Both the position numbers and the translations under genes were made by a program. The notes under the pieces were generated by a model. That model was given only the letters and a program-made list of their open reading frames with translations. It was not told the origin of the DNA and ran no database searches. Positions 16,296-43,919 of a DNA stretch of 64,000 nt are shown here, piece after piece (the stretch's first letter is position 1; the number at the start of each line of letters is the position of its first letter). The DNA is from an uncultured Verrucomicrobiae bacterium (lineage in GTDB: Bacteria > Chlamydiota > Chlamydiia > Chlamydiales > Rhabdochlamydiaceae): assembly GCA_963718565.1 (NCBI GenBank), contig OY970364.1, positions 1,024,001 to 1,088,000 on the forward strand, written 5' to 3'.

Positions 16296-17714
16296 TCAGA
16301 AATTCACAACATTACCAGTAAAAAATCCAGTATGATCCAGTCCCCCATTATCTAGAGGCAGCTGCCCTCGTTTTTTCTTCCGTTTCCTAAAAGGATTAAA
16401 GAGCTGACGCCTTTGCGAATAAATTGTCTCGCCAATATTCATTGCGGCCCACGCTTTCACTTGTTTTTTGTTACAGGTTCCTAGTGCTGCTTGAACAGTT
16501 TCTAAGTCTAACTTTCCCAGACAGGCGGCCAATGACAGCACAAAAGGGGTAAATCCGTCCTTTGAGTCTTCATCCATCAATTGCTTTAACTTACCAAAAC
16601 TAGACTCAATAATTTCTGTGCTACCTAAAGCCACTTGATCGAGGTCTTTTGTCTGATCAATCACGAAATCAAGGATACTGCCTGCAAACTGATCAGCACG
16701 GACCCCTACTTGCAGGTTCTGTAGCTCTTTTTCCAACTCCTCTGCAGTTTTGTTGTGGAGGTGTTCTGTTCGAATTTTTTGTCTTACGATTCTCCCAATG
16801 AGCAACATCTCGGATATTTCCTTGATCATAGGCTCACTGGATCTGACCCATCCAAATTGCTCAAGCAATTCCCTCAAGTCCGCCTCGCTCTTTTCGACCT
16901 CACAATTCTTCTGTTCTATTTTTTTCTGATGTTCATTTTCCATTTTTTTGAGGTGATCTAGAATTTTATTTGCCCAGCCGGTTAGTTCGTCAAGATTCAT
17001 ATATCTAGCTTTACTCCTCTGACTCGGAGGGCATAGTGCTGCCCATTTCGTCCATTGGAGTTTCTGCTTCATCTGAGAGGCTTTCGACGCAAATTCTGTC
17101 CATTCAAGTTCCGCAGCTTCCACCCCCAACAAGTTGGCTATTTTGTGAGCAATATCATTCATTACGGGAATTTTTCTGCCTTCGGCTTCTTGGACGCTCT
17201 GCGTATACAATCTGGTTGCAGATACAATATCCGATCCTTGATCATGACAAAATTGTCTGTATTGACCTACTGTCTCTTCACTTTTCTTGAGAATCTCATA
17301 GATGATTGGGCCACTTGTTTTTTCCAAAACCTCCAGGTGCAGAACGTGTACGTCTTCAAATGTCAATGCCTTAGCTTTCAAAAAAGTCGTAGCCCGTACG
17401 CCCAGAATCAAAAGACATTTTTTTGAGCCAATCTGAATAGATAAATCGATCATCCCAATCCAATCATTTGATTTCTGAATTGAGGTCAGCTTGTAATAAC
17501 CCACCTGCAAGATCCAATCGCGAATCGCAGTATGAGAGGGCATTTTGCATTGTAGCCAAAAATAACAGCGAATGAACGCCTCTCTGGCTCCGCGAAGGCT
17601 TAGTCCTCCTGAAAGAATCAATAGGAGCGATATCAGGATAACAGTTGCCGAATAGCGCCGACGAGGGATTTTTTTGTCTTGTTCCCCCGGGAGGCTTGTT
17701 GCTGCATCTGCCAT
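16296..17714 (-). CDS. Putative DDE transposase (OrfB)
   Basis: WIGMIDLSIQIG, CHDQGSD, DIAHKIAN (C/DxxH), STEIIESSFGKLK; inside the TIRs. Confidence 0.75.
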   Translation of the reverse strand: MADAATSLPGEQDKKIPRRRYSATVILISLLLILSGGLSLRGAREAFIRCYFWLQCKMPSHTAIRDWILQVGYYKLTSIQKSNDWIGMIDLSIQIGSKKCLLILGVRATTFLKAKALTFEDVHVLHLEVLEKTSGPIIYEILKKSEETVGQYRQFCHDQGSDIVSATRLYTQSVQEAEGRKIPVMNDIAHKIANLLGVEAAELEWTEFASKASQMKQKLQWTKWAALCPPSQRSKARYMNLDELTGWANKILDHLKKMENEHQKKIEQKNCEVEKSEADLRELLEQFGWVRSSEPMIKEISEMLLIGRIVRQKIRTEHLHNKTAEELEKELQNLQVGVRADQFAGSILDFVIDQTKDLDQVALGSTEIIESSFGKLKQLMDEDSKDGFTPFVLSLAACLGKLDLETVQAALGTCNKKQVKAWAAMNIGETIYSQRRQLFNPFRKRKKKRGQLPLDNGGLDHTGFFTGNVVNF

Positions 17715-19229: not shown

Positions 19230-19631
19230 CTAATCTGGTTTATACAAACAGTCACGATCACGAGCCTTAGCAGTAAGCTGTTTGGCTGTGGCTTTTATTC
19301 TGCTTTCAGAAGAAAGTTTGGAAAAATTAATGAGGGAATGAGACTTATCCTGAACAGGAGCTTCAATTGGGTCGCTTTCGATTGACAACGAGTCCAGTAT
19401 CGATACTTCTTCAACAGTTACCCCCCATACTCCTATTGACTGTAAGTTTTTTCCTTTTGTATGGAGATCAAAAGCCTCACGAGCTGAGGTCATAGAGCTA
19501 CGATTTACAGAAAGTTTCTTGTCATCCTTTTCTGTTGGTAAAAAGGCTTGGCTAGTCACACGAGATTCCCTAATGAAATTAGGATGCACCTGTCTCAAAA
19601 GAAGCTCATCTTGATCTTCAAAGGGGGCCAT
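19230..19631 (-). CDS. Hypothetical protein, possible ADP-ribosyltransferase-like fold
   Basis: LLLRQVHP...VTSQAF...KLSV...HSLI; 19 bp downstream of its partner gene. Confidence 0.7.
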   Translation of the reverse strand: MAPFEDQDELLLRQVHPNFIRESRVTSQAFLPTEKDDKKLSVNRSSMTSAREAFDLHTKGKNLQSIGVWGVTVEEVSILDSLSIESDPIEAPVQDKSHSLINFSKLSSESRIKATAKQLTAKARDRDCLYKPD

Positions 19632-19650
19632 AAAAGAGCTCTCATTATTT

Positions 19651-20793
19651 CTATTCGTGAATTTTACGCAATAAGTTATTCAAGAATTGCTTTGCTTTTT
19701 CAATGGATTCTTGATCTTGTAAAAACAACCTATCTTCCTGAACCGCTTGTGAATTAACGTGGGCCGCGTGTAAAACTACTGCTTTTTGAGCTGGCAGAAA
19801 TGAAAATGAGGTGTCCCAGTAACCAAGAGACCACTCACACTCGATTACGCCATGATCAGCGGGATAAATAAAAGGTGCCGGAATATCGCCAGCTTTTAAA
19901 AGATTTTCGAGCCATTCTCGCACAACAACAACATCTGATTGCCTAAACGTTTCTCCACTGCCATCTAGCCAGCCTTTTTTTAAATCCCCCAGGGTGTCAA
20001 ATTGTGCCTTGGGATTTGGAAAGAATTCGGGGATGCCCTCTTGATAAACAATAAGATGTTGCAGTTTTTTGATTTCAGCTACAGAACCATCCGGTTGATA
20101 CCTAGCTAATCCCACTAGTGTCACTGCGATGTCTTGTTTTTTGTACTTGGGAGCGATATCTCTCAGCAGCATATCAAATGAGGGGTCAAGAGGTCCTTCG
20201 ATAGCTTGACCATCTTCAAGCACAACAAATAATTTTCTTTTTTCAGCCTCAAATCCAGATATAGAGCCGGTGAGATAGCAAACATCAAGATAAGGTCTTT
20301 TATTGATAGACAGAATTTTCGATCGAATTTCTTTAGAGTAGATAGATGAAGTATTTTTTCTAGGTATCCGTAATTCTATAGAATCGCCCTGGTCCAGACT
20401 TTTGCCCAAGTCCTCAAAAAGAGAGATAACTTTCTTAGGAAATTTTTCAAACGGTTTCTGAGTGCTAACTGAAGAAATGAACTCATTTAGTAAATCACGA
20501 GCTTGATCAAACTCATCTTCTTCCTTATGTTCACTTTCAAATTCACGGGACAAAACAGATACAACGCTTCCAGGTTCAATGTCAGTTAGACTTAATTTGA
20601 AACGTTCTTGAAAGGCTTTTGGAAGACGCGTCTTACCTTTATGAGTGGAAAAATACAGTTCCTTTGCTATTGCACGAATAATGGCCTCGTAAGCCATGAA
20701 ATCAGGAAATGCCTGAATAGGCAGATGATGATTAGTAAAACGATCTCCTTTGAACACGGGTTCAATGAATGGAATCGAAAAATCTTTTTTCAT
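19651..20793 (-). CDS. Multidomain hypothetical protein
   Basis: F.GDRF..H.LP N-terminus, beta-rich middle, C-terminal L..GWLDG.G...PFIYP..HG.I..EW. Confidence 0.75.
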   Translation of the reverse strand: MKKDFSIPFIEPVFKGDRFTNHHLPIQAFPDFMAYEAIIRAIAKELYFSTHKGKTRLPKAFQERFKLSLTDIEPGSVVSVLSREFESEHKEEDEFDQARDLLNEFISSVSTQKPFEKFPKKVISLFEDLGKSLDQGDSIELRIPRKNTSSIYSKEIRSKILSINKRPYLDVCYLTGSISGFEAEKRKLFVVLEDGQAIEGPLDPSFDMLLRDIAPKYKKQDIAVTLVGLARYQPDGSVAEIKKLQHLIVYQEGIPEFFPNPKAQFDTLGDLKKGWLDGSGETFRQSDVVVVREWLENLLKAGDIPAPFIYPADHGVIECEWSLGYWDTSFSFLPAQKAVVLHAAHVNSQAVQEDRLFLQDQESIEKAKQFLNNLLRKIHE

Positions 20794-21099: not shown

Positions 21100-24000
21100 C
21101 TATAGTTTTGCGTTACTCATGCGAGCCTTTAATCCTTCATAAAGTTGTGCAGGTCCCAGTAAAACATCTTTTAGGCCTTGACGCACCTTTGGCGAATCCA
21201 AAGCCTGTCTGCTCATAGTAGAATGTGCACTAAGAGCATCCATGATCGCCATTTCAATTCCCCTAGCCAAATCGGATGAATTAGCAAACTGCTCTTTGGA
21301 ATTACTTGCTGCCTGCTGCATCAAGGTTGTTGATTCCATCAGTTTTCCCTTGATCACGTTATTGACATACACCAGCTTATCCTCATCTGTCAGTTCCCCA
21401 TCAAATAAGTCATTCACCTGTTCGATAATTTCGATAAGGAATGCTTTTTCCTTTGTTTGTACAGAACCTGAGCCGGATTCTGTAATCGGTTGTAATTTAG
21501 TAGGCTCACTATCTCCTAGTGGCAAATCGCTCTTACCCTGATTTTTTAGATTGTGATGAGTGAGGACGATTTTTGAGAGGTCGATCCCTTCGCGCTCACG
21601 TCCAAACTCTAGCAGAGGAAGTAGTCGTTTGTAAAAAATGAACCGCTTTTCAATAGCAGTGTTTCCATAATCAAAAATTTGAGAAAGAAATGTGTACATA
21701 TGCTGAAATGATCCAATATCGCGTTTGAAAAGTTCCAATGCATTCAGTTCATTTTGGGCCTTTTCTTCACCTACCAAATCCTCTGCTGCCTTGGCTAACT
21801 TGAGTTCCTCTTGAGCCTTTTTGTAATTCCTCAAGAGTCGATATGCAACAGGTTCCAATGCTTTAAAGAGTTCGCTCTGTTTAGCAAGAGGATTTAATGC
21901 CACCTCAATTACGCGATCGACATCAGAATCATCATAGTATCCCGCCTGATCCAACTTAGCGCGCAAATTGAACACTAAATTCGGATCCGTGACGTCTTCC
22001 AGTTCCGCTGTAGTGTGATATGTTTTGAATGCATCCAGGACCTCTATCACATTGTTCACAAAATCCAATACATAGGTCGTTTCCTTACCGGAATGGGCCC
22101 GATTTAGACGAGAAAGCGTTTGAACCGCCTGGATTCCTCCCAATTTCTTATCCACGTACATACCGCATAACAAGCTTTGATCGAAACCCGTTTGGAATTT
22201 ATTGGCAACCAGCAGGATTTGATATTCGTCAGTGGCGAAGGCTTCGCTTATCTCTCGTCCACGCAAATTAGGATTTAATGCCTTATTGTTTTCTGTAAAG
22301 GGGTCGGGACCGGATTCTATATCGATGACTTCCCCAGAAAATGCCACTAGAGTACCGATTTTATACCCCTCGCCGCGGATATATCGATCTATGGCCAACT
22401 TCCAACGTACCGCCTCAACGCGACTTCCTACAACCACCATAGCCTTGGCTTGACCATTTAGCAAAGGTGCGACATTTTCGCGGTAGTGTTCTACAACGAT
22501 TTGGACTTTTTGAGAGATGTTATAGGGATGCAGCCGTACCCAGCGCATGATGTCTTTTTTTGCAGTACTCCGTTCAATTTCCTTTTCATCATATTCCTGA
22601 CCATCATTTGCCAATTTGAATGCCAATTTATAAGGCATATAGTTTTTCAGTACATCAAGTATAAATCGCTCTTCAATCGCTTGGCGCATGGTATAGACAT
22701 GAAAGAGCATGGGTAGATTATCGGGTCCAGCTGGACAATCAGGGCGAGGGCGACGGCCGAATAATTCGATGGTTTTCGCCTTAGGCGTAGCCGTAAAGGC
22801 TATATAGGTAATGCCCACCTCTTTAGCACGAGCTGCCATTTGGGCTGTTAATAAATCTTCAGTGCTGACTCCGCCTCCGTCTTGCAATTCTTGAAGTTCC
22901 TCTGATGACAGTACTGCTTTCAATTTGGCGGCAGCTTCCCCCGTTTGTGACGAGTGGGCTTCATCAGCGATCACTGCAAAGCTTTTACCCTGAGTCGCAA
23001 GCTTCTGCACAGTCTTGAGGGCATGAGGGAATGTTTGAATTGTACACACTACGATTTTCTTATCGCCAGATAAGGCCTGAGCCAGTTCTTCGCTCTTGCT
23101 CGCACCTTCTCCCTTAATAGTTGCAACAACCCCGGTAGTGCGCTCGAATTCAAATATTGCTTCCTGTAACTGAGTATCAATCACGTTACGATCTGACACC
23201 ACAAGAATCGAGTCAAAAAGCTTTTTGTTCTGTGAATCATGCAAGTCGGCAAGAAAATGTGCTGACCATGCGATAGAATTGGTTTTTCCTGATCCAGCGG
23301 AGTGTTGGATGAGATATTTACCGCCTGGTCCTTCTTGTAATACAGCAGCGACAAGTTTGCGAGTGGCATCCAGTTGATGAAAGCGGGGAAAGACAACACT
23401 TTCGATCTGTTTCTTGCCATTCTTGTGGGTCACGAGATAACGGCCCAGTATTTCGAGCCAGCTATCTCTAGACAAGACATTTTCCCACAGGTAAGCAGTG
23501 CAGTGGCCATGCTCATTCAGGGGGTTTCCAGCCGCACCATCAGGACACCCTTGATTAAAAGGCAGAAATCGAGTCACTGCGCCTTCCAACTTTGTAGTCA
23601 TGCGTACTTCTCTATTGCTCACAGCAAAATGGACTAGCGCCCCATTCGGGAATGATAGTAGCGGTTCCGCGGCATGTCCTTGAGGTTTTGGAAGGCGATC
23701 GAAACGATACTGATCTACCGCGTCCTCGACGCTCTGCGTAAAATCAGTTTTAAGCTCAATAGTGGCTACTGGAAGTCCATTCAGGAAGAGTACTAGATCG
23801 ATACAGCTTTCGTTATGCAGCGAATAACGCACCTGTCGTATCACGCGCAGACGATTTGCATTGTATTTGGCCAGAATGTCAGAATTTAAGGTGTGTGCTG
23901 GTTTAAATTGTGCCAGGTTCAATGGCTGACGTGCCCCGTGTATTTCAAAGCCATGTCGCAATATCTCCAGCGTGCCACGTGTATCCAGTTGAGCACGTAG

Positions 24001-24219
24001 CCGTGTGACCAATATCTCGCCGGCTTGTGGGCCGTGGCTTTTAACGAGAGTTTCCCATGCATTAGGCTGAGTAGACTGGACCCATCCGATCACGTCATAG
24101 GGATACAGAGCTCTAGCCCGGTCGTATCGGAAGGCATCGTCCTCAGCATAGAGCCAGCCGTGAGCGGCCAGATGGTCACAAATTTCTTTCTCAAAGCTTA
24201 TTTCATTATGTAGGCTCAT
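21100..24219 (-). CDS. hsdR: Type I restriction endonuclease subunit R
   Basis: DLVLFLNGLPVATIELK, QHSAGSGKT, DEAHSS, FTATPK, KFQTGFD, QTLSRLNR. Confidence 0.95.
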   Translation of the reverse strand: MSLHNEISFEKEICDHLAAHGWLYAEDDAFRYDRARALYPYDVIGWVQSTQPNAWETLVKSHGPQAGEILVTRLRAQLDTRGTLEILRHGFEIHGARQPLNLAQFKPAHTLNSDILAKYNANRLRVIRQVRYSLHNESCIDLVLFLNGLPVATIELKTDFTQSVEDAVDQYRFDRLPKPQGHAAEPLLSFPNGALVHFAVSNREVRMTTKLEGAVTRFLPFNQGCPDGAAGNPLNEHGHCTAYLWENVLSRDSWLEILGRYLVTHKNGKKQIESVVFPRFHQLDATRKLVAAVLQEGPGGKYLIQHSAGSGKTNSIAWSAHFLADLHDSQNKKLFDSILVVSDRNVIDTQLQEAIFEFERTTGVVATIKGEGASKSEELAQALSGDKKIVVCTIQTFPHALKTVQKLATQGKSFAVIADEAHSSQTGEAAAKLKAVLSSEELQELQDGGGVSTEDLLTAQMAARAKEVGITYIAFTATPKAKTIELFGRRPRPDCPAGPDNLPMLFHVYTMRQAIEERFILDVLKNYMPYKLAFKLANDGQEYDEKEIERSTAKKDIMRWVRLHPYNISQKVQIVVEHYRENVAPLLNGQAKAMVVVGSRVEAVRWKLAIDRYIRGEGYKIGTLVAFSGEVIDIESGPDPFTENNKALNPNLRGREISEAFATDEYQILLVANKFQTGFDQSLLCGMYVDKKLGGIQAVQTLSRLNRAHSGKETTYVLDFVNNVIEVLDAFKTYHTTAELEDVTDPNLVFNLRAKLDQAGYYDDSDVDRVIEVALNPLAKQSELFKALEPVAYRLLRNYKKAQEELKLAKAAEDLVGEEKAQNELNALELFKRDIGSFQHMYTFLSQIFDYGNTAIEKRFIFYKRLLPLLEFGREREGIDLSKIVLTHHNLKNQGKSDLPLGDSEPTKLQPITESGSGSVQTKEKAFLIEIIEQVNDLFDGELTDEDKLVYVNNVIKGKLMESTTLMQQAASNSKEQFANSSDLARGIEMAIMDALSAHSTMSRQALDSPKVRQGLKDVLLGPAQLYEGLKARMSNAKL

Positions 24220-26600
24220 GGAGTCTCCTGCTGGACGAGTTGGCGCACATCGATTTTACCAGTCACTGCAGCGGAGATGAGGGCCTTACGCTGTTCTTGG
24301 AAGAGGGTGAGAACCGTATTAAATTCAGTTATGAGAGCATCGGTTTTGGCAAGAAATGCAGCAATCGCTGCTTGTTCGGAAAGAGGAGGGGAAGGGATGA
24401 GAATATTCTTCATTTCAGAGAAATGAGTACTCCAGAGATCAGCTGCAATTCCTTTGCCATTCCTGTAAAATTCATCTTGAAAGGGGGGGCTTCTTAATAA
24501 ATAGTGCGTAAAATATTTCGTTATATCAATAGGTTGAAGAACAATGTTAATAAGAGACACTGACCCGTCTTGCGAGGCTATGCCTGAAGATCCTTTGCGA
24601 TCTGAACGACTATTAATTACAAAATCTCCAGAACAAACTTTTTTTCGATTATCACCATCATCAGTTTTTACTGCTGTATCCAATTGCGGCACCACACCAT
24701 TTTTAGTTACTGACAATGGCATATATTCAGTATCACTGACCTTTTCGCGACGTTCATGAAAAAAAGTTCCCAGGCGATCCACATTCCAATGTTCCGGCAC
24801 ATTTTCTAACCATCCCACCCCGCTGTCTTTATATTGTTCATACTCCTTAAAACTCGTGGGTGTTTCTATATTTTTAAGCATCTCTAAAATTCGATGGGTC
24901 GCATTTTTCAGCTCAGCATCAATCACCTCAAGCTTTCTAAATGGTTTAAATACATAAAAGTGACGATTAAACGGGATTTCGTATCCTATCTTAGTTTTTC
25001 CATGATTAATCCAGGCTTTTGGGCTACGGGGCAAAATTTCTTTCCTAAAATATTCTTCTATGTTTTCAACTAGAGGGACGTTTTCCGTAGCTCTCAGCTC
25101 AATATTTGGAAGTTGGTTACCTTTCTGTTTCCCTTTAGTACCTATTACTACATTTCCTCTCTCATCATGCATCGGCTGTTCAACTGTGATTGCCCTATAT
25201 CCAAACTCTTCGTTTTTGAAGATTTTGCTTGATAAAACCCCGGCTTTTTCAGTCTCTACAAAATCACCAAATAATCGTGTTATTTCGACAACCTGCTCAT
25301 CATTTAGTTCTTTACGTTTTTCACCAACGCATTTGTGCATTTTTTGCCAAAAATTGCTGGCATCAATCAGTTGAACTTTGCCTTTTCTTTCTTGGGTTTT
25401 GCGGTTGGAGAGAATCCAGATATAAGTGGGGAGGCCTGTGTTATAGAACATGTCCGTGGGTAATGCGATTATTGCTTCTAATAAATCATTCTCGAGCACA
25501 TACCTACGTATTTCACTTTCGCCTGAGCCGGCATCTCCAGTATGAAGAGAAGAGCTGTTTAGAACGATGCCGATTTTGCTGCCGCCATCTTTCGCTGGTC
25601 GCATTTTGGAAATGAGGTGGAGAAGAAAAAGAAGAGAACCATCGCTGACTCTCGGCAAACCAGGACCAAATCGTCCGCTGAAGCCTTGGGTTTCGTGTTC
25701 TTTGCGAACTTCCTTTTCGACTTTTTTCCATTCTACGCCAAAAGGAGGATTAGAGAGCATATAGTCAAATACCTTATGAGGGTGACCATCCTTGGAAAGG
25801 GTGTTATCGTAGATAATATTAGCGATTTCCTGTCCCTTGATGAGCATGTCAGCTTTGCAAATTGCGTACGATTCGGGATTGAGTTCTTGGCCGTATACGG
25901 TAAGTTGAGCTTGTGGATTGTGTCCTGCGAGATGTTCGCTGGCTACCGATAACATACCACCTGTACCAGCTGTAGGGTCATAAAGAGTCCGTACTACGCC
26001 TGATTTAGACAAAATTTCATCATCTTCGATGAATAACAAGTTGACCATGAGCTTGATAACTTCGCGCGGGGTAAAATGTTCTCCGGCAGTCTCGTTAGAG
26101 ATTTCCGCATAGTTGCGAAGTAGTTCTTCAAAGATCAGTCCCATCTGGGTATTGTCCACTGATTCCGGATGTAGATCTATTTTTGCAAATTTTTCAGCCA
26201 CTTGATACAAGAGGGCGTATTTATTAAGGCGTTCGATTTGAGTAAAGAAGTCAAAGTGCTCGAAGATATCGCGCACTGAAGATGAGAAGCCTTGAATGTA
26301 AGCGAACAAATTTTCTTTGATATGATCTGTGTCTCCCATAAGTTTTTTCATATCCAAGGGCGAGGTATTATAAAAACTCTGCCCAGACTTGCGCAGCAAG
26401 AACAACTCGGGGTTCACCTCAGCTTTTTGTTTATTAGAGAGCTCCGTCAGCACAGCTTCCTTGGTAGGGTTGAGTACACAATCCATCCGGCGCAGTACCG
26501 TAAAGGGTAGGATGACCTTCCCGTAATCGGATTGTTTGTATTCGCCACGTAATAAATCAGCTATAGACAAAATGAAAGAAGAAAGTGATTGATGATTCAT
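24216..26600 (-). CDS. hsdM: Type I m6A methyltransferase HsdM fused to a single-TRD half HsdS
   Basis: GEHFTP, DPTAGTGG, NPPF, KIGYEIPFNRHFY; then in frame YKDSGVGWLENVPEHW-TRD-PPLSEQAAIAAFL...ALISAAVTGKIDV. Confidence 0.9.
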   Translation of the reverse strand: MNHQSLSSFILSIADLLRGEYKQSDYGKVILPFTVLRRMDCVLNPTKEAVLTELSNKQKAEVNPELFLLRKSGQSFYNTSPLDMKKLMGDTDHIKENLFAYIQGFSSSVRDIFEHFDFFTQIERLNKYALLYQVAEKFAKIDLHPESVDNTQMGLIFEELLRNYAEISNETAGEHFTPREVIKLMVNLLFIEDDEILSKSGVVRTLYDPTAGTGGMLSVASEHLAGHNPQAQLTVYGQELNPESYAICKADMLIKGQEIANIIYDNTLSKDGHPHKVFDYMLSNPPFGVEWKKVEKEVRKEHETQGFSGRFGPGLPRVSDGSLLFLLHLISKMRPAKDGGSKIGIVLNSSSLHTGDAGSGESEIRRYVLENDLLEAIIALPTDMFYNTGLPTYIWILSNRKTQERKGKVQLIDASNFWQKMHKCVGEKRKELNDEQVVEITRLFGDFVETEKAGVLSSKIFKNEEFGYRAITVEQPMHDERGNVVIGTKGKQKGNQLPNIELRATENVPLVENIEEYFRKEILPRSPKAWINHGKTKIGYEIPFNRHFYVFKPFRKLEVIDAELKNATHRILEMLKNIETPTSFKEYEQYKDSGVGWLENVPEHWNVDRLGTFFHERREKVSDTEYMPLSVTKNGVVPQLDTAVKTDDGDNRKKVCSGDFVINSRSDRKGSSGIASQDGSVSLINIVLQPIDITKYFTHYLLRSPPFQDEFYRNGKGIAADLWSTHFSEMKNILIPSPPLSEQAAIAAFLAKTDALITEFNTVLTLFQEQRKALISAAVTGKIDVRQLVQQETP

Positions 26601-26816: not shown

Positions 26817-27572
26817 ATGACTTATAATTCCGATCGTTCTAGAAATTTATTTTCTTCAAACGAGGCAAAGCCGTTCAAACTGAGTCGTTCGAAAATTCAG
26901 GACTTTCTCAACTGTCCACGCTGTTTTTATCTCGATCGGAAATGTGGCACAGGCCGCCCACCCTCCTATCCATTCACTCTCAATAACGCCGTCGATACCC
27001 TTCTAAAAAAAGAATTCGATAAATATAGAGCAGCCTGTGAGCCCCACCCTCTGATGATTGAGCATGGGGTCAATGCTATTCCCTTTACCCATCCTGACCT
27101 GGAAGCTTGGAGGCAAAATTTCAAAGGTGTGCAGTACACACATGAGCCAACAAAATTTACCGTTACCGGCGCCGTAGATGACCTGTGGATCAATTCGGTC
27201 GGAGAGCTGGTCATTGTGGATTACAAAGCGACTTCAACGACCAAAGAGATAACGCTCGATGAGGAGTACCGTAAAGCCTACAAGAAACAGATGGAGATCT
27301 ATCAATGGCTGCTGAGGCGAAAAGGGTTCCATGTGTCAAACACCGGTTATTTCGTTTATTGCAATGGAGATAGCTCCAAAGAATTATTTGGAAAGAAGCT
27401 TGAATTTTCGATCTTTGTTATTCCCTATACTGGGGATGATTCCTGGGTAGAACCGACTCTGTTTGAGATTCGCACATGTCTCGAATCGGATGAGTTCCCG
27501 CAAGTCACGGCGTCTTGCGATTTTTGCAATTATCGGGCAGCAGTTCGAAAGCATCTCAAAGACATAGAATAA
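26817..27572 (+). CDS. PD-(D/E)XK nuclease (PDDEXK_1/RecB-like, Cys cluster)
   Basis: LSRSKI..F..CPRCFY, GAVDD, IVDYK, QMEIY, CDFC. Confidence 0.88.
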   Translation: MTYNSDRSRNLFSSNEAKPFKLSRSKIQDFLNCPRCFYLDRKCGTGRPPSYPFTLNNAVDTLLKKEFDKYRAACEPHPLMIEHGVNAIPFTHPDLEAWRQNFKGVQYTHEPTKFTVTGAVDDLWINSVGELVIVDYKATSTTKEITLDEEYRKAYKKQMEIYQWLLRRKGFHVSNTGYFVYCNGDSSKELFGKKLEFSIFVIPYTGDDSWVEPTLFEIRTCLESDEFPQVTASCDFCNYRAAVRKHLKDIE

Positions 27573-28616: not shown

Positions 28617-31082
28617 TTAATCGGTTTTGGTGACTTTCCATAGTGTGGTGCCTTGTCGTTCACCAGCCACTTCAAGGCGATAGCCTTGTTCGATCCGGTT
28701 TTTAAAATTTTTAAGTTTATTGCCAAGCCACCTCTCGTTCAGTTCCCCTTTATTGGTGCCTGCGAGACTTAGAAGAGCTTCGTAGAGAGTGGCGCTTACG
28801 TCGCTGCTTTCATGAGCTTTTGCCACGAGTTCTTTGACTTTGACGGGGGTTGAGCCGAAGATTGCAAACCAGGCAGAAAAGAGAGCTCCTAAAGCTGTCC
28901 TGATGGGGTCTGTGGATTCGATTTCTTTACGCGAGAGGCATGGGTCGGGCAATCCTAGCCATACAATTGCAGATCTGATCCAGTCGCTCCACTCCTCGAA
29001 TCGGCCAAACTGCTTGATATTTTGCATGGGCCGCCCGGCAATGTGGAAGGCTCTAAGGATAGTGAGTCCGGCGTTGACCAAACGCGGGCGGTTTTCGGGA
29101 ATATACTTGTGGAGATTGATCGAGAAGGATCGCTCTTCAGGGCGTTCAATGCGGGGATCAAGCTGGCAGAGCAATGTTCGAGTGCTTAGATCGCCAATGA
29201 AGGTCAAGTTATTGCCTGTCGCTAAAAAGCAGCTGTCGGTAGGGACTGTAGCCGTGCTCGAACCGCCAAGCACTCTATCCTTGAATTCTTTTTGCGTGAG
29301 GACAGAGCACAAAGATGGACTGCCGAAGGGGCGTTCGACATTGTCGTAGCAGATCATGAGGTCACCTTCCATAAGTACGGAAAGAAGACGTTTGCGCTCT
29401 TCGATCTCATTTTCGGCCATTGATAAAACGCTATTGGGCTTTCCTGTAGCGATCAGTGCTATGGCATCCGCAAGAAGGCTTTTCCCTGAACCCATCTTGG
29501 GAGCCGTAATTCCGATCATTGGAGCCGTTGCAATCGATTTGCGGACCAAGGTAGTCAAAATGCCGGCAATTGCAACCGATTTACTTTCGAGATTTGCAAA
29601 AAGAAATCCCTCAAGCACTATTGTTAATTTTTCAAGCGCACATTGAGCATCTTCAAATGTGGGTTTTACTAAAATCGGCTCCCAGTATGTGTCGTAACCT
29701 AAAAATAGCAATCCGGTCATTGGATCGTAACCTGGACGGTCGATGATTGATCCATCTGGTCGAAGCGTGGGAGCGTGAATGAGACCGCGGAGAACCGGCA
29801 ACTTCCATTGTCCACGCGCAATCAGAGTTTTCGCGATCTTTTCGGGGCAGTCGATGTCTTTTTTCTTTCCTTTGCTGTTCATGGTTGTCCAAAGGGCTTT
29901 TTGCGTGAGCAGTTCGGTGAGATAAGTAAAATTGACGTCCGTAATTATATAGGCATTCTCAGATCTTGAAATCGATGAATCTGAGGGCTTTGTGGCAGCG
30001 GGCACCGCACGGACGAGCCTTCCCCCTCTTTGAAAAATACCTGTATCGGGTTTTAGAAGAATCCCCTCTGCCTCATCTGTGGCGATGTGTAAATTTCCAG
30101 GGCAGACGACAATCTCCGTGCGATCAGATGATGAGGTCGCCTGCATTTGATACGATTCTGCGACGAAAGCCAATGCAGCTGCAATCGTTCTTTTGCGATA
30201 GTCAGGCCTATTGCCCCATTTGCTTCGTTGTCCAAGAGCTGAGCCCGAAAAAAGGCGTTCAAGCTGATCTTCGTCCCTTGTGTAAAAGACTAAAAGGTTC
30301 ATCAAGGCTTGATCGGCCGCGGATTCGTCACCTCCATATTCGGCAGTGCTTCCATTGTTATAGAGCAACTTGAACTTACTGCCATTTTTAGCCGAGGAAG
30401 CTATTTTGAGAATGAGCTCGTCTTCCATGATGGCTGAAGATGGTTCTTCTCGATGAGGAATTTGTTGAGGGGACAATGTTGGAAAATATTGATCGCAAAT
30501 CTCCGTGATTTCGGCTGTAGCTTCTCGAAGCGGCCGAATTTCTCCATAAGGATCGTTTGTGATGCAGGCAAAACGGCCGTGGTCATAGATTTCAAGGAAC
30601 TCTGAACGGCAGGCCTTTGAGATTTTATGGCCCTTTGCATAAATGTGTAATCCTGTGCGTGACTGACTGTATTCGACATAGGAATTCACTTTTTCTACAA
30701 TTTCAAGGGCGGGCAGCGACATTATGCCCGTATCCTTGTCTATGATGTGATCGAGATCAATGAATACAAGTCCAGTTTCAGGGGTGACAGCGAATCCAAG
30801 TAGACGAGGCTTATATTTAGCCCCAGGGTCATCTGCCAGGCGCCTCAATGCCTCTTTTGCCTCTTTGAAAGTTCCCCAAGTGCCAGAATCGTTAATTTTG
30901 GCAGGAAGGCCTGTATGAGGATCGATGGGAAGCTTTTTGATTTTACCATCGTTTTGAGGAATGAGGGAAAAACACACCCAAATTCTGTCATTTTCAAGAT
31001 AAGCTAAAGGCTCCGGAAGGTACGGATCCATACTATGAACCGGCCGACGCTCAGGCTCATTATTGATCATTTCAATCGCCAT
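28617..31082 (-). CDS. Primase-polymerase (NrS-1-like) fused to a P-loop helicase
   Basis: KKLPIDP.TG, TWGTF, FIDLDH, EYSQSRTGLHI, EIYD.GRF, DESAADQAL; APKMGSGKS, YDNV, ATGNN. Confidence 0.85.
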   Translation of the reverse strand: MAIEMINNEPERRPVHSMDPYLPEPLAYLENDRIWVCFSLIPQNDGKIKKLPIDPHTGLPAKINDSGTWGTFKEAKEALRRLADDPGAKYKPRLLGFAVTPETGLVFIDLDHIIDKDTGIMSLPALEIVEKVNSYVEYSQSRTGLHIYAKGHKISKACRSEFLEIYDHGRFACITNDPYGEIRPLREATAEITEICDQYFPTLSPQQIPHREEPSSAIMEDELILKIASSAKNGSKFKLLYNNGSTAEYGGDESAADQALMNLLVFYTRDEDQLERLFSGSALGQRSKWGNRPDYRKRTIAAALAFVAESYQMQATSSSDRTEIVVCPGNLHIATDEAEGILLKPDTGIFQRGGRLVRAVPAATKPSDSSISRSENAYIITDVNFTYLTELLTQKALWTTMNSKGKKKDIDCPEKIAKTLIARGQWKLPVLRGLIHAPTLRPDGSIIDRPGYDPMTGLLFLGYDTYWEPILVKPTFEDAQCALEKLTIVLEGFLFANLESKSVAIAGILTTLVRKSIATAPMIGITAPKMGSGKSLLADAIALIATGKPNSVLSMAENEIEERKRLLSVLMEGDLMICYDNVERPFGSPSLCSVLTQKEFKDRVLGGSSTATVPTDSCFLATGNNLTFIGDLSTRTLLCQLDPRIERPEERSFSINLHKYIPENRPRLVNAGLTILRAFHIAGRPMQNIKQFGRFEEWSDWIRSAIVWLGLPDPCLSRKEIESTDPIRTALGALFSAWFAIFGSTPVKVKELVAKAHESSDVSATLYEALLSLAGTNKGELNERWLGNKLKNFKNRIEQGYRLEVAGERQGTTLWKVTKTD

Positions 31083-31088
31083 AATATC

Positions 31089-31298
31089 CTAAGCTTTAGA
31101 ATGGTCGTCTATGTAAGACAGGAAGGCCTGCTCGTCTAAAAGAATCTTTCTTCCCAATTTTTTAACAACACGACCGTTGAAATTGTCCTTATTGGTAAAA
31201 ATGAGGTGGCGAATTCCCCCTTCAGGAATGGCCCTATATTTGTCGAGCCATTGCTTGAGGGTAAGGAAGCTTTTTTGATGGTTGAGAGTTGTAGACAT
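31089..31298 (-). CDS. Small HTH DNA-binding protein (AlpA/excisionase-like)
   Basis: FLTLKQW...GGIRHLIF...VKKLGRKILLDE..F; AGGAG RBS. Confidence 0.75.
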   Translation of the reverse strand: MSTTLNHQKSFLTLKQWLDKYRAIPEGGIRHLIFTNKDNFNGRVVKKLGRKILLDEQAFLSYIDDHSKA

Positions 31299-31390
31299 GC
31301 TTGCTCCTAGTAATTATGACTTTTCGTCATTTACTTTCTTTATATGTGGAGCAATATAATTGATTGTACTAGATGCGCTTATCGGACAAG

Positions 31391-32461
31391 CTAACGCAAT
31401 TGATTCGGGGTGATATTCCGAAGATTAGCCTTCTTGCATGCCTTAGCAAAGCTCCTTCGGACCATGCGCGGATCGATTGGGCCACCGGATTTGTTTTTAA
31501 AGAGAAAAACGTCTGTATTGCGAGCAAGCTCAGAAAGTTCAGCATACATCGATCCGAGAACATAATAGCAGACCATCTTCGAGCCCGGAAAAGCACGTGA
31601 TCTCACGCAGACAGAATTGCCTCCCGCGTTGTCGGGAAGACACTCCCTTATGTGCTTTAACGAATCCGAGCCTATGTCGGATACTTGGATAAGCAAAACA
31701 GATTCTAAATGAACAATCGGAGCATCTGGATGGTTGCATATTTCATGATTGAACCACCATAAAATCCGGGCTATGAGTTCGTGGGTGGAATTGATCTCTT
31801 TTAAAGCCGGGAAAAAAGTTTTAGCTTCTTCTTCTGTAAGGCAATTTTTCCTCTTGGCGCGATAAAATTTATTTCCCTTTCTTGTCTTTTTCATGCGAAA
31901 ATCTTGTGGGTTTTTCAAGAATGCATGAAATGACCTGAGCATGTTGTACATCTTGTCATTGTAATTGTAATACTTGCTGCTGTGAGGCCCGAGGGATGAA
32001 AACTTGAGTGCCGATTCCTCTACTGTGTTTGCTCTTTGCAAGTAATCGTCTAGGGAAACAAGCGGATCAATAATGCCCTCTTGAATTAAGTCGCCGAATA
32101 ACCTCCTGTACTGAGCCGTGGTTGTCCCCGAGGTTCGCAGAGCGATGAAATATTCAATGGCATTTTGAATAGGGCTATTTCCATGGATTTTGATAGTGTC
32201 TGGCGCTTTTGCACCAGTATCAACGATCCAGGACAAAGGGAAATTATTGAATTCACAGATTTCCTTAATTTCTGAAAGCCGGGTCTCAGTTGGATCGATG
32301 ATTCTTGGAATTGGATAGTCGATGGGAAACTCGACCTCTTCGACGATGTATTCCCCTGGTTTAGCTTGTGGATGATATTGCGGAATGAGCGCAACGCGTT
32401 CTCCTTTCCAATAACCTAAAAAGAACCCGCCTCTGCAAATTTTTCTTCTAACCATTTTCAT
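31391..32461 (-). CDS. Tyrosine-recombinase-fold protein lacking catalytic residues
   Basis: LTEEEAKTF, ESVLLIQVSDI, FLFKNKSGGPI, ends ITPNQLR*; ATGA overlap with the integrase stop. Confidence 0.7.
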   Translation of the reverse strand: MKMVRRKICRGGFFLGYWKGERVALIPQYHPQAKPGEYIVEEVEFPIDYPIPRIIDPTETRLSEIKEICEFNNFPLSWIVDTGAKAPDTIKIHGNSPIQNAIEYFIALRTSGTTTAQYRRLFGDLIQEGIIDPLVSLDDYLQRANTVEESALKFSSLGPHSSKYYNYNDKMYNMLRSFHAFLKNPQDFRMKKTRKGNKFYRAKRKNCLTEEEAKTFFPALKEINSTHELIARILWWFNHEICNHPDAPIVHLESVLLIQVSDIGSDSLKHIRECLPDNAGGNSVCVRSRAFPGSKMVCYYVLGSMYAELSELARNTDVFLFKNKSGGPIDPRMVRRSFAKACKKANLRNITPNQLR

Positions 32462-32991
32462 CCAAAAATCTCCTCGTTCATGCGTTCTACAACTTTAGAA
32501 ATGTGCTTCTGCGTTAGATGGGAATATCGCCTCGAAACTTCCAAATGTTTGTGGCCTAGTAAAATTCCGATCTCGATGAGGCTAGAACCGGACATTGCCA
32601 TGTAGGAAGCAGCTGAATGCCTGAGATCGTGAAACCGGAAATCTTTGATCCCGGCCTGTTTTAGGGCAGAAATCCAGGCCTTCCGCAGATCCATTGGTTT
32701 GCCAGGGACTTTCCCCGGGAATAGCAGGTTATGGTGTAATTGGCGCTCTTGCAGGTGTTGCCACAAAAGATCTAACGCAAGGCTAGCGAGAGGGATCGTC
32801 CGACAGGTTTTGTTTTTCGTTTTTTCTAGAATAATCTGCTTTCGCTGAAGGTCAATTTGCTGCCAGGTTAGATTCATGATCTCGCTTTGACGCATTCCGG
32901 TGCTGATCGCCAGTACAACCACGATGTAGAGAAAGGGGCTATAGCTGGCCTTGCAAGCATTGAGCAGCCTTTCGCGCTCGTCATCGCTTAA

Positions 32992-39657: not shown

Positions 39658-42604
39658 GCCGTTTCCCCTTGTCTTCATAGGTCACATCAAAATTGACGTC
39701 AGATAGCCATTTCTTGAAGAAGGGATTGTCGCTGAACTGCTTAAAGAGTTCTGTCTGATCTGAGAGAAGATTGACCATAACGCGCTGAAGAGCCTTATCG
39801 TGCTCTATTCGCGCATTCTGTTTGTCTGAGTTTTTCATCGCATTTTGATAGGCAGGATCTGCTCCCACCTTTTCTGGAATTTCTTCCGTAATGATACGCC
39901 GTACTTTATCCTCGTCTTTCCATTCAATGCTGCCAAAAAGATCGTTGAACGTCTTGATGATATTACTTAAGTGATCGAGTTCCGGCTCAGGTTTCCTGCC
40001 TTTCGCACTTGTTGGCACAGCACCCAGTTCCGCGTCTTGATCTGGAAGAGATATTTTCAATATTGATTTCACCTCAACGCGGTAGCTATCGATATCGATC
40101 GCCTCTAATATTCCTCTTGATAAATCCTCTTCTTTTGGCGCAGGAAGCTTTGGAATCAAGAAATTCAGAAAAATCGCCAGCTTTTCCCAATTTGGATTTG
40201 AGTAGGGCAGTATGGAAGATAGGAAGCCATAGGTTCGGGTAAATGCCTTCGCTTTGCTTTTGAAGTCAACTTGTCCATCCTCATCTAGTTCTTCTTGATA
40301 AAGAGCGACACAGCCGTCAAGAATAGGATCTAATCGATCTCTACTTGCTCCATTGAGATATTTCGCTACGAAATCTTCAATTTGAAGCCAACTGTAGACC
40401 TGAGCCTGATCCAAATCCGTTTGAAGATCATGGAGTTTATTAGGATCGGTCTCTTCGCTAAGGATCGTCGTACGGTAATAGTCAGAAAATGCTTTTGTAA
40501 TGGTATCAGCGTCGTTGCAGAAATCGAGAACAAAAGTGTCGTATTTCTGAGGATGCGCCCTATTAAGACGCGAAAGAGTTTGAACAGCTTTGATCCCCGA
40601 AAGAGGTTTATCCACGTACATAGTATGGAGCAAAGGCTCGTCATAGCCAGTTTGAAACTTATCCGCAACGATCAGAAAGCGATACGGATCTTCTTGGACT
40701 TTATCTGGGATGCTATTGCTTGGAAACCCGTTCAGTGAAGCCTCAGTAACCTTCTGCCCCGCATATTCATGTTCTCCCGAAAATGCAACGATTCCTTGAT
40801 AAGGGCTTTTGATCTCGCGCAAATACTCCCTAAAAGCGTGGAAATACTCGATAGCTCTCTGGATGCTGCTCGTCACTACCATCGCCCTAGCGTGACCACC
40901 AATCTTACGATGACCAATGACCTGTTCATTGAAGTGGTCAATCATAATCTCGGCTTTTTGCCGGATGGCATGCTTATCCGATTCAACAAACTTACGCAGC
41001 TTCTTTTGGGCCCTTTTCGTATCGAAAAGAGGATCTCCTTCCAGAGTTTTTGCAAGTCGGTAGTAACTTTTTACTGGGGTGTAATGTTTGAGGACATCGA
41101 GAATAAATCCCTCTTCAATCGCCTGTTTCATCGTATAAGAGTGGAAGGGACGGTGTTTGATCACACCTCCTTCTGGATAAGGCTCCCCAAAAATCTCTAG
41201 GGTCTTATTTTTAGGAGTTGCAGTGAAAGCAAAATAGCTCGCATTCGAGAGCATCTTTTTGCCTTCCAGGATCTTATTGATCTTGTCTTCTACCGTCTCG
41301 TCCTCATCATCCCCTTCTTCTTGCTGAGCCAGGGTCATATTCATTTTGGCAGCCGTTCTTCCACCTTGGCTCGAATGCGCTTCGTCAATGATGATGGCAA
41401 ATCGACTTTTGCGGTGTTCATCGGCTATGGCATCTAATACGAAAGGAAACTTCTGCACGGTCGTAATAATGACCTTTTTCCCACCCTGAAGAAACTGTTT
41501 GAGATCGCTGGAATGTTCGGCATGCCCGACAATCGCTGATACCTGAGCAAATTGCTTGATCGTATCTCGAATTTGTTTATCTAAGACTTTTCTATCAGTC
41601 ACGACCACAATACTATCGAAAATGGATTGCCCATGTTTTTCAACCCCTACAAGCTGATGAGCCAGCCAAGCAATCGAATTACTCTTGCCGCTTCCTGCTG
41701 AATGTTGAATCAGATAACGTTTACCAATTCCAATGTTAGAGGTTTGAGCCAGCACTTTTCTTACTACATCCAGTTGATGGTATCTCGGGAATATCTGCTT
41801 CTCTTTCTTCCTTCCTTTACCATCCTTTTCCTCAACTACTTGAGCGTAGTTTTCAAGGATATTAGTGAGGCTTGCTTTTGTGAGGATTTCCTTCCAAAGG
41901 TAATCGGTAGCAATTCCATTGGGATTTGGCGGATTGCCTGCACCTGCGTTATATCCTCTATTGAAAGGAAGAAACCAAGAGGCTTTCCCTTTTAGATGGG
42001 TGCACATTCTCACTTCATGATCATCGACTGCAAAGTGGACCACACAACGACCAAAAGCAAAAAGCAGCTCTCTAGGATCTCGATCCCTTTTGTATTGTTG
42101 AACAGCGTCTTCTACCGTTTGTTTAGTGAGTTTATTTTTCAACTCGAAGGTAGCAATCGGCAATCCATTGATGAAAATCGCAAGATCCAGAGCCAAATTT
42201 GACTCATCTCGGCTATATCGAAGTTGTCTTGTTACGCTGAAGATATTTGCATCGAATAGCTCACGAGCTTTCGCATTACCTAAAGAGGGGGAGCCGTAGA
42301 AAAGATCGATAGAAAGTGGACCGTGCCTAATACCCTTTCGGAGGACAGAAACAACTCCATTTTTCGCTATTTCCCCCTGAAGTCGGTGGAGAAATTGAGT
42401 ACGAGTTGGGCCATCCTCTTCAAGTCCGCATCCCTCAAAAGCCTTTGGCTGGGTAGCTTTCAAGAAAGCTGCCAATTTGGCAATATCAATGGCATGACCT
42501 CGGTCATAATCTTCTCGAGATCCTAGCTCGTAGCCGTTCTCGCTTACCAGCCAATCAACAATGAGATCCTCAAGCCCGCGTTCGCTTGTATCAGTCGTCT
42601 TCAT
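39635..42604 (-). CDS. hsdR: Type I restriction endonuclease subunit R
   Basis: DLAIFINGLPIATFELK, QHSAGSGKS, DEAHSS, KFQTGYDEP, QTLSRLNR. Confidence 0.95.
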   Translation of the reverse strand: MKTTDTSERGLEDLIVDWLVSENGYELGSREDYDRGHAIDIAKLAAFLKATQPKAFEGCGLEEDGPTRTQFLHRLQGEIAKNGVVSVLRKGIRHGPLSIDLFYGSPSLGNAKARELFDANIFSVTRQLRYSRDESNLALDLAIFINGLPIATFELKNKLTKQTVEDAVQQYKRDRDPRELLFAFGRCVVHFAVDDHEVRMCTHLKGKASWFLPFNRGYNAGAGNPPNPNGIATDYLWKEILTKASLTNILENYAQVVEEKDGKGRKKEKQIFPRYHQLDVVRKVLAQTSNIGIGKRYLIQHSAGSGKSNSIAWLAHQLVGVEKHGQSIFDSIVVVTDRKVLDKQIRDTIKQFAQVSAIVGHAEHSSDLKQFLQGGKKVIITTVQKFPFVLDAIADEHRKSRFAIIIDEAHSSQGGRTAAKMNMTLAQQEEGDDEDETVEDKINKILEGKKMLSNASYFAFTATPKNKTLEIFGEPYPEGGVIKHRPFHSYTMKQAIEEGFILDVLKHYTPVKSYYRLAKTLEGDPLFDTKRAQKKLRKFVESDKHAIRQKAEIMIDHFNEQVIGHRKIGGHARAMVVTSSIQRAIEYFHAFREYLREIKSPYQGIVAFSGEHEYAGQKVTEASLNGFPSNSIPDKVQEDPYRFLIVADKFQTGYDEPLLHTMYVDKPLSGIKAVQTLSRLNRAHPQKYDTFVLDFCNDADTITKAFSDYYRTTILSEETDPNKLHDLQTDLDQAQVYSWLQIEDFVAKYLNGASRDRLDPILDGCVALYQEELDEDGQVDFKSKAKAFTRTYGFLSSILPYSNPNWEKLAIFLNFLIPKLPAPKEEDLSRGILEAIDIDSYRVEVKSILKISLPDQDAELGAVPTSAKGRKPEPELDHLSNIIKTFNDLFGSIEWKDEDKVRRIITEEIPEKVGADPAYQNAMKNSDKQNARIEHDKALQRVMVNLLSDQTELFKQFSDNPFFKKWLSDVNFDVTYEDKGKRHGKQKRP

Positions 42605-43919
42605 CAGCGACTCCCACCAATTCGAGAGATTCTTCTATTTCTTCAGGTTCTATGAGACCATCAATCGTATCCTGGAATGAAGATTCATCAATTTTGACAT
42701 CACGAACATCTATTTTTCCTGTGACTGCATCGGAAATCAGGCGATTTCTGTATTCTTGGATTAGATCAATTTCACGTTGACATTTCAAAATGGCGTCTTC
42801 ATAAAGCGCCATTTTTTCTTCAATAAAATGAACAATTTTCAATTGTTCTTCTAAAGGCGGCAATGCGAGAGGGTGCTTACCAAGATCTTCTTGTGTCATG
42901 CTAGGCAATGCAGTGTGCGTAGAGTAGTATTTAAATTGGAAACCCGTAGAGCAATAATACAAAAACTTGGCCGATATATCCTTAGAAACTTCTGAATAAA
43001 ACATCGTATCGATTGTCCAAAATGGCCCGTTCATATAAATCGGTTTGTCAATTGTTCCTTTTCTTCCAAACAATATAGACTCCCCGTTATACAAAAACTT
43101 GGAGGCAGAAGAAAATTGTCCTCCTGAACCTATAACTGGAAAACCTTGATTGGCTTCAACTTGTTTGTGATCCTGTCCATTTTTAATTTTTGCCACATTT
43201 TTCAATCTTCTTATTTCCCAATGCTCAGGAATATCGCCTAACCAATTGACTCCACTCGGCTTCAGTCGTACATTTGGATCAATACCACGGTTAACGGCTT
43301 CTCTAATGATAACTTGCTTTTGCTCTTTTAAAAGAAGGATTTTCTTCTTTTTATTTCTGATAAAATTTTGAGATAAAGAATCAATATACTTTAAAAAAAT
43401 CGCTATTTTTCTTTGTTCTTCGTAAGGAGGACAAAGCACTGGCATCCCTAGAAATTTATCAGGGTACAATCTAAGGCGAGACGAGCGTATACCTGTAGAA
43501 CGACGGACGTACTCTGCACGATATGTTTCTATTCGGAGCAAACGATCTAAAAAATATGAATTATAAATGTCTAAGTTTTTAGGACGGTATACACCATAAG
43601 ACGGACTTACAACCCCATGTTCATTTGAAACCCCTAAAGCTGCCATCCAAGCCCACATCGTATTTATAACCACATCTCCAGATCGACAAAGCTTATGCCC
43701 CTCATTGGACTCGGCTTGAAACATAGAGACATTTAATAATTTACGACGAGTAACCCCTCTAATATGAGATACTGAGAGCATTTCCTCAGAACCGGTTACT
43801 GAGCGGTCGTCTATTTCAGAGAAAAAATATTTGGCTCTCCTTTCGATCCAATGATGAGGAATGCTGCCCACAGTTGCAAGACGAGAGCTTTTGTACTCAG
43901 GATATCGCTTTAACAGCAT
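42591..43919 (-). CDS. hsdS: Type I specificity subunit with two TRDs
   Basis: IPHHW-TRD1-PPYEEQ; SGVNWLGDIPEHW-TRD2-PPLEEQ; LISDAVTGKIDV. Confidence 0.95.
   Translation of the reverse strand: MLLKRYPEYKSSRLATVGSIPHHWIERRAKYFFSEIDDRSVTGSEEMLSVSHIRGVTRRKLLNVSMFQAESNEGHKLCRSGDVVINTMWAWMAALGVSNEHGVVSPSYGVYRPKNLDIYNSYFLDRLLRIETYRAEYVRRSTGIRSSRLRLYPDKFLGMPVLCPPYEEQRKIAIFLKYIDSLSQNFIRNKKKKILLLKEQKQVIIREAVNRGIDPNVRLKPSGVNWLGDIPEHWEIRRLKNVAKIKNGQDHKQVEANQGFPVIGSGGQFSSASKFLYNGESILFGRKGTIDKPIYMNGPFWTIDTMFYSEVSKDISAKFLYYCSTGFQFKYYSTHTALPSMTQEDLGKHPLALPPLEEQLKIVHFIEEKMALYEDAILKCQREIDLIQEYRNRLISDAVTGKIDVRDVKIDESSFQDTIDGLIEPEEIEESLELVGVADEDD

Follow-up and report, generated by a model that had tools for sequence, protein, structure and literature searches.

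In the 64,000 nt stretch of DNA analysed here (the window; contig OY970364.1, positions 1,024,001 to 1,088,000, from an uncultured Verrucomicrobiae bacterium), the list of open reading frames (ORFs) includes an intact two-gene type I restriction-modification locus on the minus strand. The first gene (24216..26600) is a single open frame of 794 amino acids (aa) in which hsdM continues into half of an hsdS gene. Its product matches the Pfam families HsdM_N, N6_Mtase and Methylase_S as well as the PADLOC models MTase_I (E 1e-257) and Specificity_I (residues 583-752, E 2.3e-57). The second gene, hsdR (21100..24219), encodes 1039 aa and shares four bases with the first (24216..24219), which read ATGA on the minus strand and hold both the stop of the fusion gene and the start of hsdR. 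No stop codon or frameshift interrupts the 1833 codons of the two genes.

A first-pass annotation of this DNA had described a complete HsdM with an NPPF motif that runs in frame into one target recognition domain (TRD) bounded by both conserved ends of HsdS, with hsdR following by the ATGA overlap and with no separate hsdS. Pfam, PADLOC and alignments bear out this description. Specifically, no separate hsdS was found in the fusion locus when neighbouring genes were searched with Pfam and PADLOC. The 2.28-Mb genome does carry other hsdS genes, each within a different type I locus: one in the second type I locus of the window (42591..43919), another at C1:173851-174879, and a weak match at C1:898129-898458.

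The fusion protein begins with an HsdM N-terminal domain (residues 6-138, 26187..26585; PF12161, E 7.6e-24), followed by a gamma-class N6-adenine methyltransferase domain (residues 152-452, 25245..26147; PF02384, E 4.4e-60) and by the HsdM C-terminal domain, which is the part that docks HsdS (residues 453-583, 24852..25244). The methyltransferase motifs DPTAGTG (motif I), NPPF and NSSSLHTG lie at residues 208, 284 and 348 respectively. The fusion joint corresponds to codons T582-S583 (ACG AGT, 24852..24857), the place at which the hsdM stop overlaps the hsdS start in relatives. Downstream of the joint, the protein continues with the HsdS N-terminal conserved region (residues 584-606, 24783..24851), which aligns with the N-termini of separate HsdS proteins. 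A single TRD (about residues 607-735, 24396..24782; PF01420) comes next, and alignments with two-TRD HsdS proteins identify the remainder as a hybrid conserved helix with the C-terminal tail (residues 736-794, 24219..24395).

Several observations define this portion as one half of an HsdS subunit. Pfam finds Methylase_S in one stretch only (residues 603-759), which scores 27.9 bits where the cut-off is 22. In a comparison with 117 two-TRD HsdS proteins, residues 584-794 have a median identity of 62% to the N-terminal half, made up of TRD1 and the central helix, and the TRD is 62-77% identical to TRD1 in many HsdS proteins. The two conserved ends correspond in alignments to the N-terminal and the distal conserved region of two-TRD HsdS proteins. 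The conserved core of the TRD is kept: of 100 columns with at least 90% conservation, 8 carry real substitutions, a count that falls within the range of the relatives. The start of the helix resembles the central conserved region and its end the distal one, including a normal HsdS C-terminal tail. The first-pass annotation had remarked that the coiled-coil spacer looks short, and the helix does lack 4 residues, between L750 and A751, relative to the consensus of the 117 relatives. Among solved structures there was no TRD near enough to guess the half-site, and the best HsdS match (E 2.5e-6) covers the helix only.

The hsdR product has the Pfam domains HSDR_N, SWI2_SNF2, ResIII and T1R_D3-like. 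Its motifs comprise the nuclease signature D..ELK at residue 141, GSGKT at 309, DEAH at 419, TATP at 476 and QTLSRLNR at 700. The locus therefore shares with classical type I enzymes (R2M2S1) an HsdR with a PD-(D/E)XK nuclease and a superfamily 2 (SF2) motor, in addition to an HsdM with the HsdM_N domain, the gamma-class N6 domain, motif I and NPPF. It departs from them in two features. One TRD is present instead of two TRDs with two conserved helices, and two genes, with M and S in one frame, replace three separate subunit genes. Despite these departures the locus should work like a type I system, and its one TRD, one dimerization helix and both conserved ends are the features of a half-HsdS enzyme.

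Comparison with related loci suggests how the fusion arose. HsdM homologues stop at about residue 580-583 of the fusion protein, and HsdS homologues begin directly after. Of 26 related M/S junctions that could be placed, 24 have a 4 nt ATGA or GTGA overlap, with an S protein that starts MSF or similar. The joint of the window copy is ACG AGT TTT, coding T-S-F. Here ACGAGT equals the ACATGAGTTT junction minus two bases; such a loss removes stop and start at once and merges the two frames. We infer this two-base loss from the comparison, and not from an observed event.

Because the helix combines a central-type start with a distal-type end, the simplest reading is that the central and distal conserved repeats of a two-TRD hsdS recombined with each other and TRD2 was deleted in the process. 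Two small events in a canonical hsdM-hsdS-hsdR operon would then account for the present form. A deletion of 2 bases within the ATGA overlap would have brought hsdS into the hsdM frame, and the repeat recombination would have left one TRD and the hybrid, shortened helix. A canonical arrangement of this kind, M580-S434-R with the usual overlaps, occurs in a Parachlamydiaceae metagenome-assembled genome (locus L092). Relatives in general have separate hsdM and two-TRD hsdS genes with a 4 nt overlap.

The whole fusion depends on two bases at 24852-24857, and a two-base error in assembly or sequencing would leave hsdM and hsdS as genes that are really separate. This explanation gains something from the fact that the joint is bridged by one contig only, from a run (X1) that may be the window's source sample. 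A contig was counted as bridging if it had at least 31 letters on both sides of the joint; X1 supplied one such contig and runs X2-X4 none, and uncovered parts are uninformative. However, the X1 contig (24550-24985) agrees with the window with no differences or gaps, although its possible origin in the same sample makes this weak support, and no insertions or deletions are listed in the 4 runs, which come from two studies. Furthermore, the joint is not a homopolymer, an error there would leave the missing TRD2 and the hybrid helix unexplained, and an unfused hsdS would have no start codon, having ACG where relatives carry ATG or GTG. We consider an artefact extremely improbable. The X2 run also contains a variant contig over the N-terminus of the M part, where 7 of the 9 listed differences (depth <5) fall at third codon positions. 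This bias is a weak hint of purifying selection on that region.

The fusion locus is a mosaic, a feature that the first-pass annotation does not mention, any more than it mentions the laboratory precedent for the design. The closest HsdM, P0002, is an unfused protein of 582 aa, and the closest HsdR is P0389; the two are probably encoded on one contig, since the longest contig of each has 64,434 bases and comes from the same source. Sliding identities delimit a divergent patch at approximately 23840..25580, which covers the 3' portion of hsdM, the half-hsdS and the first ~127 codons of hsdR, and whose flanks are 92-100% identical to this relative with an unfused hsdM. Identity to P0002 is 92-98% over M residues 1-300, including the HsdM N-terminal domain, and 57-64% over residues 421-583, where P0002 itself is 68-85% identical to the family consensus. 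At sites where P0002 departs from the consensus, the window protein has the same state at 40 of 49 in residues 1-300 and at 6 of 34 in residues 421-583.

The other border of the patch is equally distinct. HsdR and P0389 differ at 34 positions, of which 27 lie in residues 5-127, 1 at residue 265 and 6 at the ragged end of P0389; that end apart, residues 128-936 contain a single difference. The sharp drop at residue ~127 places a recombination border inside hsdR and not at the gene boundary. A divergent patch in a near-identical background is, judged from these alignments, the signature of a specificity cassette exchanged by recombination. No donor of the patch was found at more than ~66% identity among plasmids, genome representatives, 80 metagenome loci and the 119 best proteins.

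A relative-rate count on hsdM gave 50 versus 16 and, together with 26 departures at conserved columns, raised the idea of uniform relaxed selection on this gene. It was rejected as the main cause, since the divergence is confined to a region, residues 421-583 are the only part of M that has lost its affinity to P0002, and the border in HsdR is sharp. The regional divergence and this border instead indicate recombination, not decay in place.

To what extent two copies of the protein could form the equivalent of a complete HsdS was addressed by structure prediction. Residues 421-794 modelled as two copies gave a homodimer score of 0.75, and the best of 3 controls scored 0.00. Of the proteins solved as homo-pairs, 20 of 30 attain the 0.75 mark, against 1 of 23 whose solved form is a single chain; these counts hold approximately because a custom alignment was used. 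Model runs showed at least 57% contact agreement and a pLDDT (predicted local distance difference test score) of at least 73 for the partner. In the modelled interface the C-terminal helices are antiparallel, with residues 746/750 of one copy against 774-778 of the other. Each C-terminal tail lies on the N-terminal conserved region of the other copy, in the manner of the ring closure of a whole HsdS.

The features of the locus and the model are consistent with the following mechanism. Two 794-aa copies would pair through the antiparallel coiled coil of their C-terminal helices, and each tail would close onto the N-terminal conserved region of its partner. The result would be a symmetric (M~half-S)2 methyltransferase, equivalent to M2S1. 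Its target would be an interrupted palindrome composed of a half-site and its complement, with one adenine methylated per strand. Two HsdR subunits, whose translation would be coupled through the ATGA overlap, would bind this core and then translocate and cut unmethylated DNA.

We lean towards the reading that the locus is active as such an (M~half-S)2 type I enzyme, with the activity of this copy predicted from the model and by analogy. The motifs, the TRD core, the HsdR core and the open frames count in its favour at the sequence level. A homodimer with a symmetric target had been proposed in the first-pass annotation. That proposal is strengthened by a dimer model that scores above its controls and by the precedent of the engineered M½Sfus protein (PMC6158711), and for this particular copy we infer it from those two sources.

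A number of observations weigh against this reading. To begin with, the success of the dimer model may reflect memory of solved HsdS structures, and the model is thus a likeness and not a proof. The HsdM C-terminal domain is an outlier in identity comparisons. The NSSSLHTG motif carries the changes G349S, P351S and F353H at columns that are 99-100% conserved in 116 relatives, and G356D alters the last glycine of the motif relative to all 6 relatives aligned. Over the whole M part, the window protein deviates at 26 of the 348 columns with at least 97% conservation, more than any other of the 120 sequences compared. In addition, the near-identity of the HsdR core to that of a relative with an unfused hsdM means that the cassette may have arrived, or been fused, very recently. 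Because of this possibly recent origin, the open frames say little about selection.

The form is also rare. The first-pass annotation had suggested looking for the same fusion among relatives, and the best 119 relatives of the whole protein comprise 117 separate HsdM proteins (577-605 aa, covering residues 1 to ~580) and 2 fused proteins, P0003 (842 aa, on 3 contigs) and P0006 (804 aa, on 2 contigs). When residues 584-794 served as the query of an exhaustive search, the matches were separate HsdS proteins; the 150 best representatives have 248-641 aa and mostly two TRDs, either half of which the query matches, and none of these 150 is fused. The fused frame was present in 0 of 80 related metagenome loci. 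Nor was it found among 40 relatives, of which 18 are congeneric, or among 399 further genomes sampled from the phylum, where the best match has a TGA at the junction and hence is unfused. Among 25 plasmid matches listed, the only one that aligns in one piece over the joint belongs to a decayed locus. Such rarity is expected if fusions are usually short-lived.

Other candidates for the fused form were set aside. Among the best 120 matches to the joint region, the joint is spanned only by the query and by P0165, a broken 440-aa piece that reads through the joint, has no Pfam match and is cut in both genes. An 802-aa open frame in G035, which happens to hold an ORF of 794 aa as well, encodes an HsdM with an extended tail but lacks an S domain. 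The one-piece plasmid match lies on the Acinetobacter indicus plasmid CP046596.1 (locus L095, 3500-9600), where frames do not exceed 333 aa. The ESM Atlas gave leads only (0.88-0.91), one cluster of which carries both Methylase_S and N6_Mtase. The two fused relatives, P0003 and P0006, are separate cases. Their linker is longer and unrelated, and many unfused proteins are closer in the M part than these two are, from which it follows that fusion arose more than once.

These points could be accommodated if the locus were a recently inactivated remnant, silent or non-functional because the methyltransferase or its assembly did not survive the deletion at the joint, the removal of TRD2 and the changes in the motif, with frames that remain open only because these events were recent. 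The cluster of changes in a near-invariant motif, the excess of conserved-column departures, the rarity of fused forms, the clear decay of the plasmid locus with a read-through joint, the broken P0165 piece and the possibly very recent origin of the cassette would all fit such a history. On the other hand, 1833 codons are free of stops and frameshifts, and divergence is limited to a sharp-bordered patch instead of extending through the gene, with ordinary conservation of the TRD and HsdR. A dead methylase alongside a live DNA-binding restriction complex would be lethal, making partial decay unstable, and the laboratory-built equivalent works as described by its makers (PMC6158711). We regard inactivation as somewhat unlikely.

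The first-pass annotation had itself pointed to NSSSLHTG as a departure from the NGSSLFTG of the second HsdM and a possible sign of decay. The departure is real, as the conserved columns demonstrate, and it may reflect decay. A near-invariant motif is altered; however, the position of F353 is Y in EcoR124I HsdM and S in 3khk (2 of the five solved HsdM proteins aligned), so that F353H need not be fatal. Moreover, the changes fall in the imported divergent patch, and there is no uniform decay.

A third possibility is that the fused protein dimerizes and methylates a palindrome, as an epigenetic mark or for protection, while HsdR is not assembled or not expressed. In the report on the laboratory system, unfused M plus half-S modified DNA in vivo without restriction, and half-S cores can lose their coupling to HsdR (PMC6158711). 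The first 127 residues of HsdR also lie within the divergent patch. In contrast, HsdR is intact with all of its motifs and is translationally coupled through ATGA, and the fused laboratory form did restrict (PMC6158711). The HsdR N-terminus, the M C-terminus and S all lie in the patch, as would suit co-adapted parts that move as a unit. A system reduced to its methyltransferase is, in our judgement, highly unlikely.

The locus might also represent a standing natural lineage of two-gene type I enzymes and not a fresh accident. Such a lineage would correspond to the intermediate between classical type I enzymes and the single-chain types (IIG, IIB and ISP) in the model of the Dryden group, with tethering having relaxed the constraint on M-S docking. 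Relaxed docking would explain why an outlier M C-terminal domain (at most ~66% identical to anything found) stands beside an ordinary catalytic N-terminal part and an ordinary HsdR. We hold this reading to be rather doubtful.

The genes around the locus belong in part to candidate defence systems. The immediate neighbours identified by Pfam and PADLOC are PDC-M32A/B and a PD-(D/E)XK gene. PDC-M32A (380 aa, E 1.4e-72) and PDC-M32B (133 aa, E 1e-39) form a PADLOC candidate defence pair directly downstream of hsdR (window 19230-20793, minus strand), and neither has a Pfam match. Because this pair adjoins hsdR, the fused type I locus sits within a defence cluster. The PD-(D/E)XK protein is Cas4-like and is encoded upstream of the fusion gene and divergently from it (26817-27572, plus strand). 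Farther away, a DUF6602 protein (35898-37223, plus strand) matches NucC-type effector nucleases (PADLOC, E 4e-33).

Just upstream of the locus, the span 28617-34873 encodes an 821-aa protein with an NrS-1 polymerase helix-bundle domain, a 356-aa frame with no Pfam match and a DDE transposase (608 aa). A 472-aa frame at 16296-17714 likewise has no Pfam match. The segment that carries the fused system may be mobile or rearranged, and the system was not found in the 18 congeneric genomes. A scan for promoters and terminators gave no excess over shuffled sequence (10 versus 12.3 and 5 versus 5.3, respectively).

The second type I system of the window has an HsdM of 712 aa (43910-46048, minus strand) with the usual NGSSLFTG motif and a C-terminal part of ~230 residues. 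Its motif IV is NPPY instead of NPPF. NPPY subunits have been tied to N4-methylcytosine (m4C) in two-methylase systems in the account of Morgan et al. (2016; PMC5100572). Unlike those systems, a single hsdM is seen here.

Each element of the fused locus has a precedent, and the exact combination is known as a laboratory construct. In the report of Bower et al. (2018; PMC6158711), the engineered M½Sfus protein of Staphylococcus aureus CC398-1 together with HsdR restricts and modifies in vivo (efficiency of plating 0.10 and then 1.02), methylates the palindrome ACCN5GGT and elutes as a dimer-sized species. The window locus resembles it in that a full hsdM reads in frame into one TRD, the first in the construct, and into one whole conserved helix, with hsdR as a separate gene, and by analogy a dimer on a palindromic bipartite site is expected of the window copy too. 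The window copy differs from M½Sfus in being natural, in belonging to a distant HsdM/HsdR lineage and in that its activity is predicted. Furthermore, its helix is a central/distal hybrid with 4 residues fewer, and its joint has no start methionine.

The laboratory construct served to argue that type I enzymes simplify stepwise toward single-chain restriction enzymes. The window locus is a natural counterpart of this engineered evolutionary intermediate in the form of a compact two-gene system, and an intact natural copy in which both founding lesions are legible implies that the M~half-S step does occur in genomes. If the enzyme is active, a single TRD would give it a palindromic type I specificity, and it would be a case in which to ask what a covalent link does to the constraints acting on the M-S interface. 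An inactive enzyme would illustrate the way in which type I loci die. Whichever applies, the locus is not a new kind of system. The literature searched, which did not extend to REBASE or the supplements of papers, where such cases may be listed, contained no description of a natural locus made up of M~half-S and HsdR alone.

The closest parallels on the S side are half-HsdS subunits that act as homodimers. As reviewed by Loenen et al. (2014; PMC3874165), EcoR124I HsdS(delta50), truncated EcoDXXI and natural NgoAV recognize palindromes in this way, in agreement with the first-pass statement that half-HsdS subunits can dimerize on symmetric bipartite sites. The window protein shares with them one TRD and one helix, with two copies taking the place of a two-TRD HsdS, and a predicted target that is an interrupted palindrome. 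In all three, which belong to family IC, the half-S is a separate polypeptide, whereas that of the window is covalently joined to HsdM. Their half-S subunits result from truncation or frameshift, whereas TRD2 of the window copy appears to have been lost cleanly through repeat recombination.

Covalent M-S fusions are known from engineered EcoKI (Roberts et al., 2012; PMC3510504) and, as natural cases described by Morgan et al. (2016; PMC5100572), from M2.Dac11109IV and from M2.PcaI with an extra single TRD. In these, as in the window, hsdM is read through into hsdS at an overlapping junction. However, the EcoKI and Dac11109IV fusions contain the whole two-TRD S and need a second, free M, and PcaI keeps a separate complete S. 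In the window locus each M has a single TRD, and further S or M genes are lacking.

Two further groups share part of this organization. M.DrdI, M.XmnI and M.XcmI are homodimeric type II gamma-class methyltransferases thought to pair on interrupted palindromes, according to the same review (PMC3874165). Like the window protein, they consist of one chain, in which a C-terminal TRD and a coiled-coil motif come after the methyltransferase. They are partnered by a type II endonuclease, whereas the partner of the window protein is a motor-nuclease HsdR with SF2 motifs, and the window protein includes a full HsdM with HsdM_N; the locus is therefore not of the M.DrdI kind. The type ISP enzymes LlaGI and LlaBIII, also described there (PMC3874165), combine nuclease, motor, methyltransferase and TRD in one chain and act as monomers at asymmetric sites. 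They have in common with the window locus one TRD per methyltransferase and an ATP-dependent motor nuclease. The window locus differs from this single-polypeptide design in that HsdR occupies its own frame of 1039 aa and the fusion protein retains a dimerization helix.

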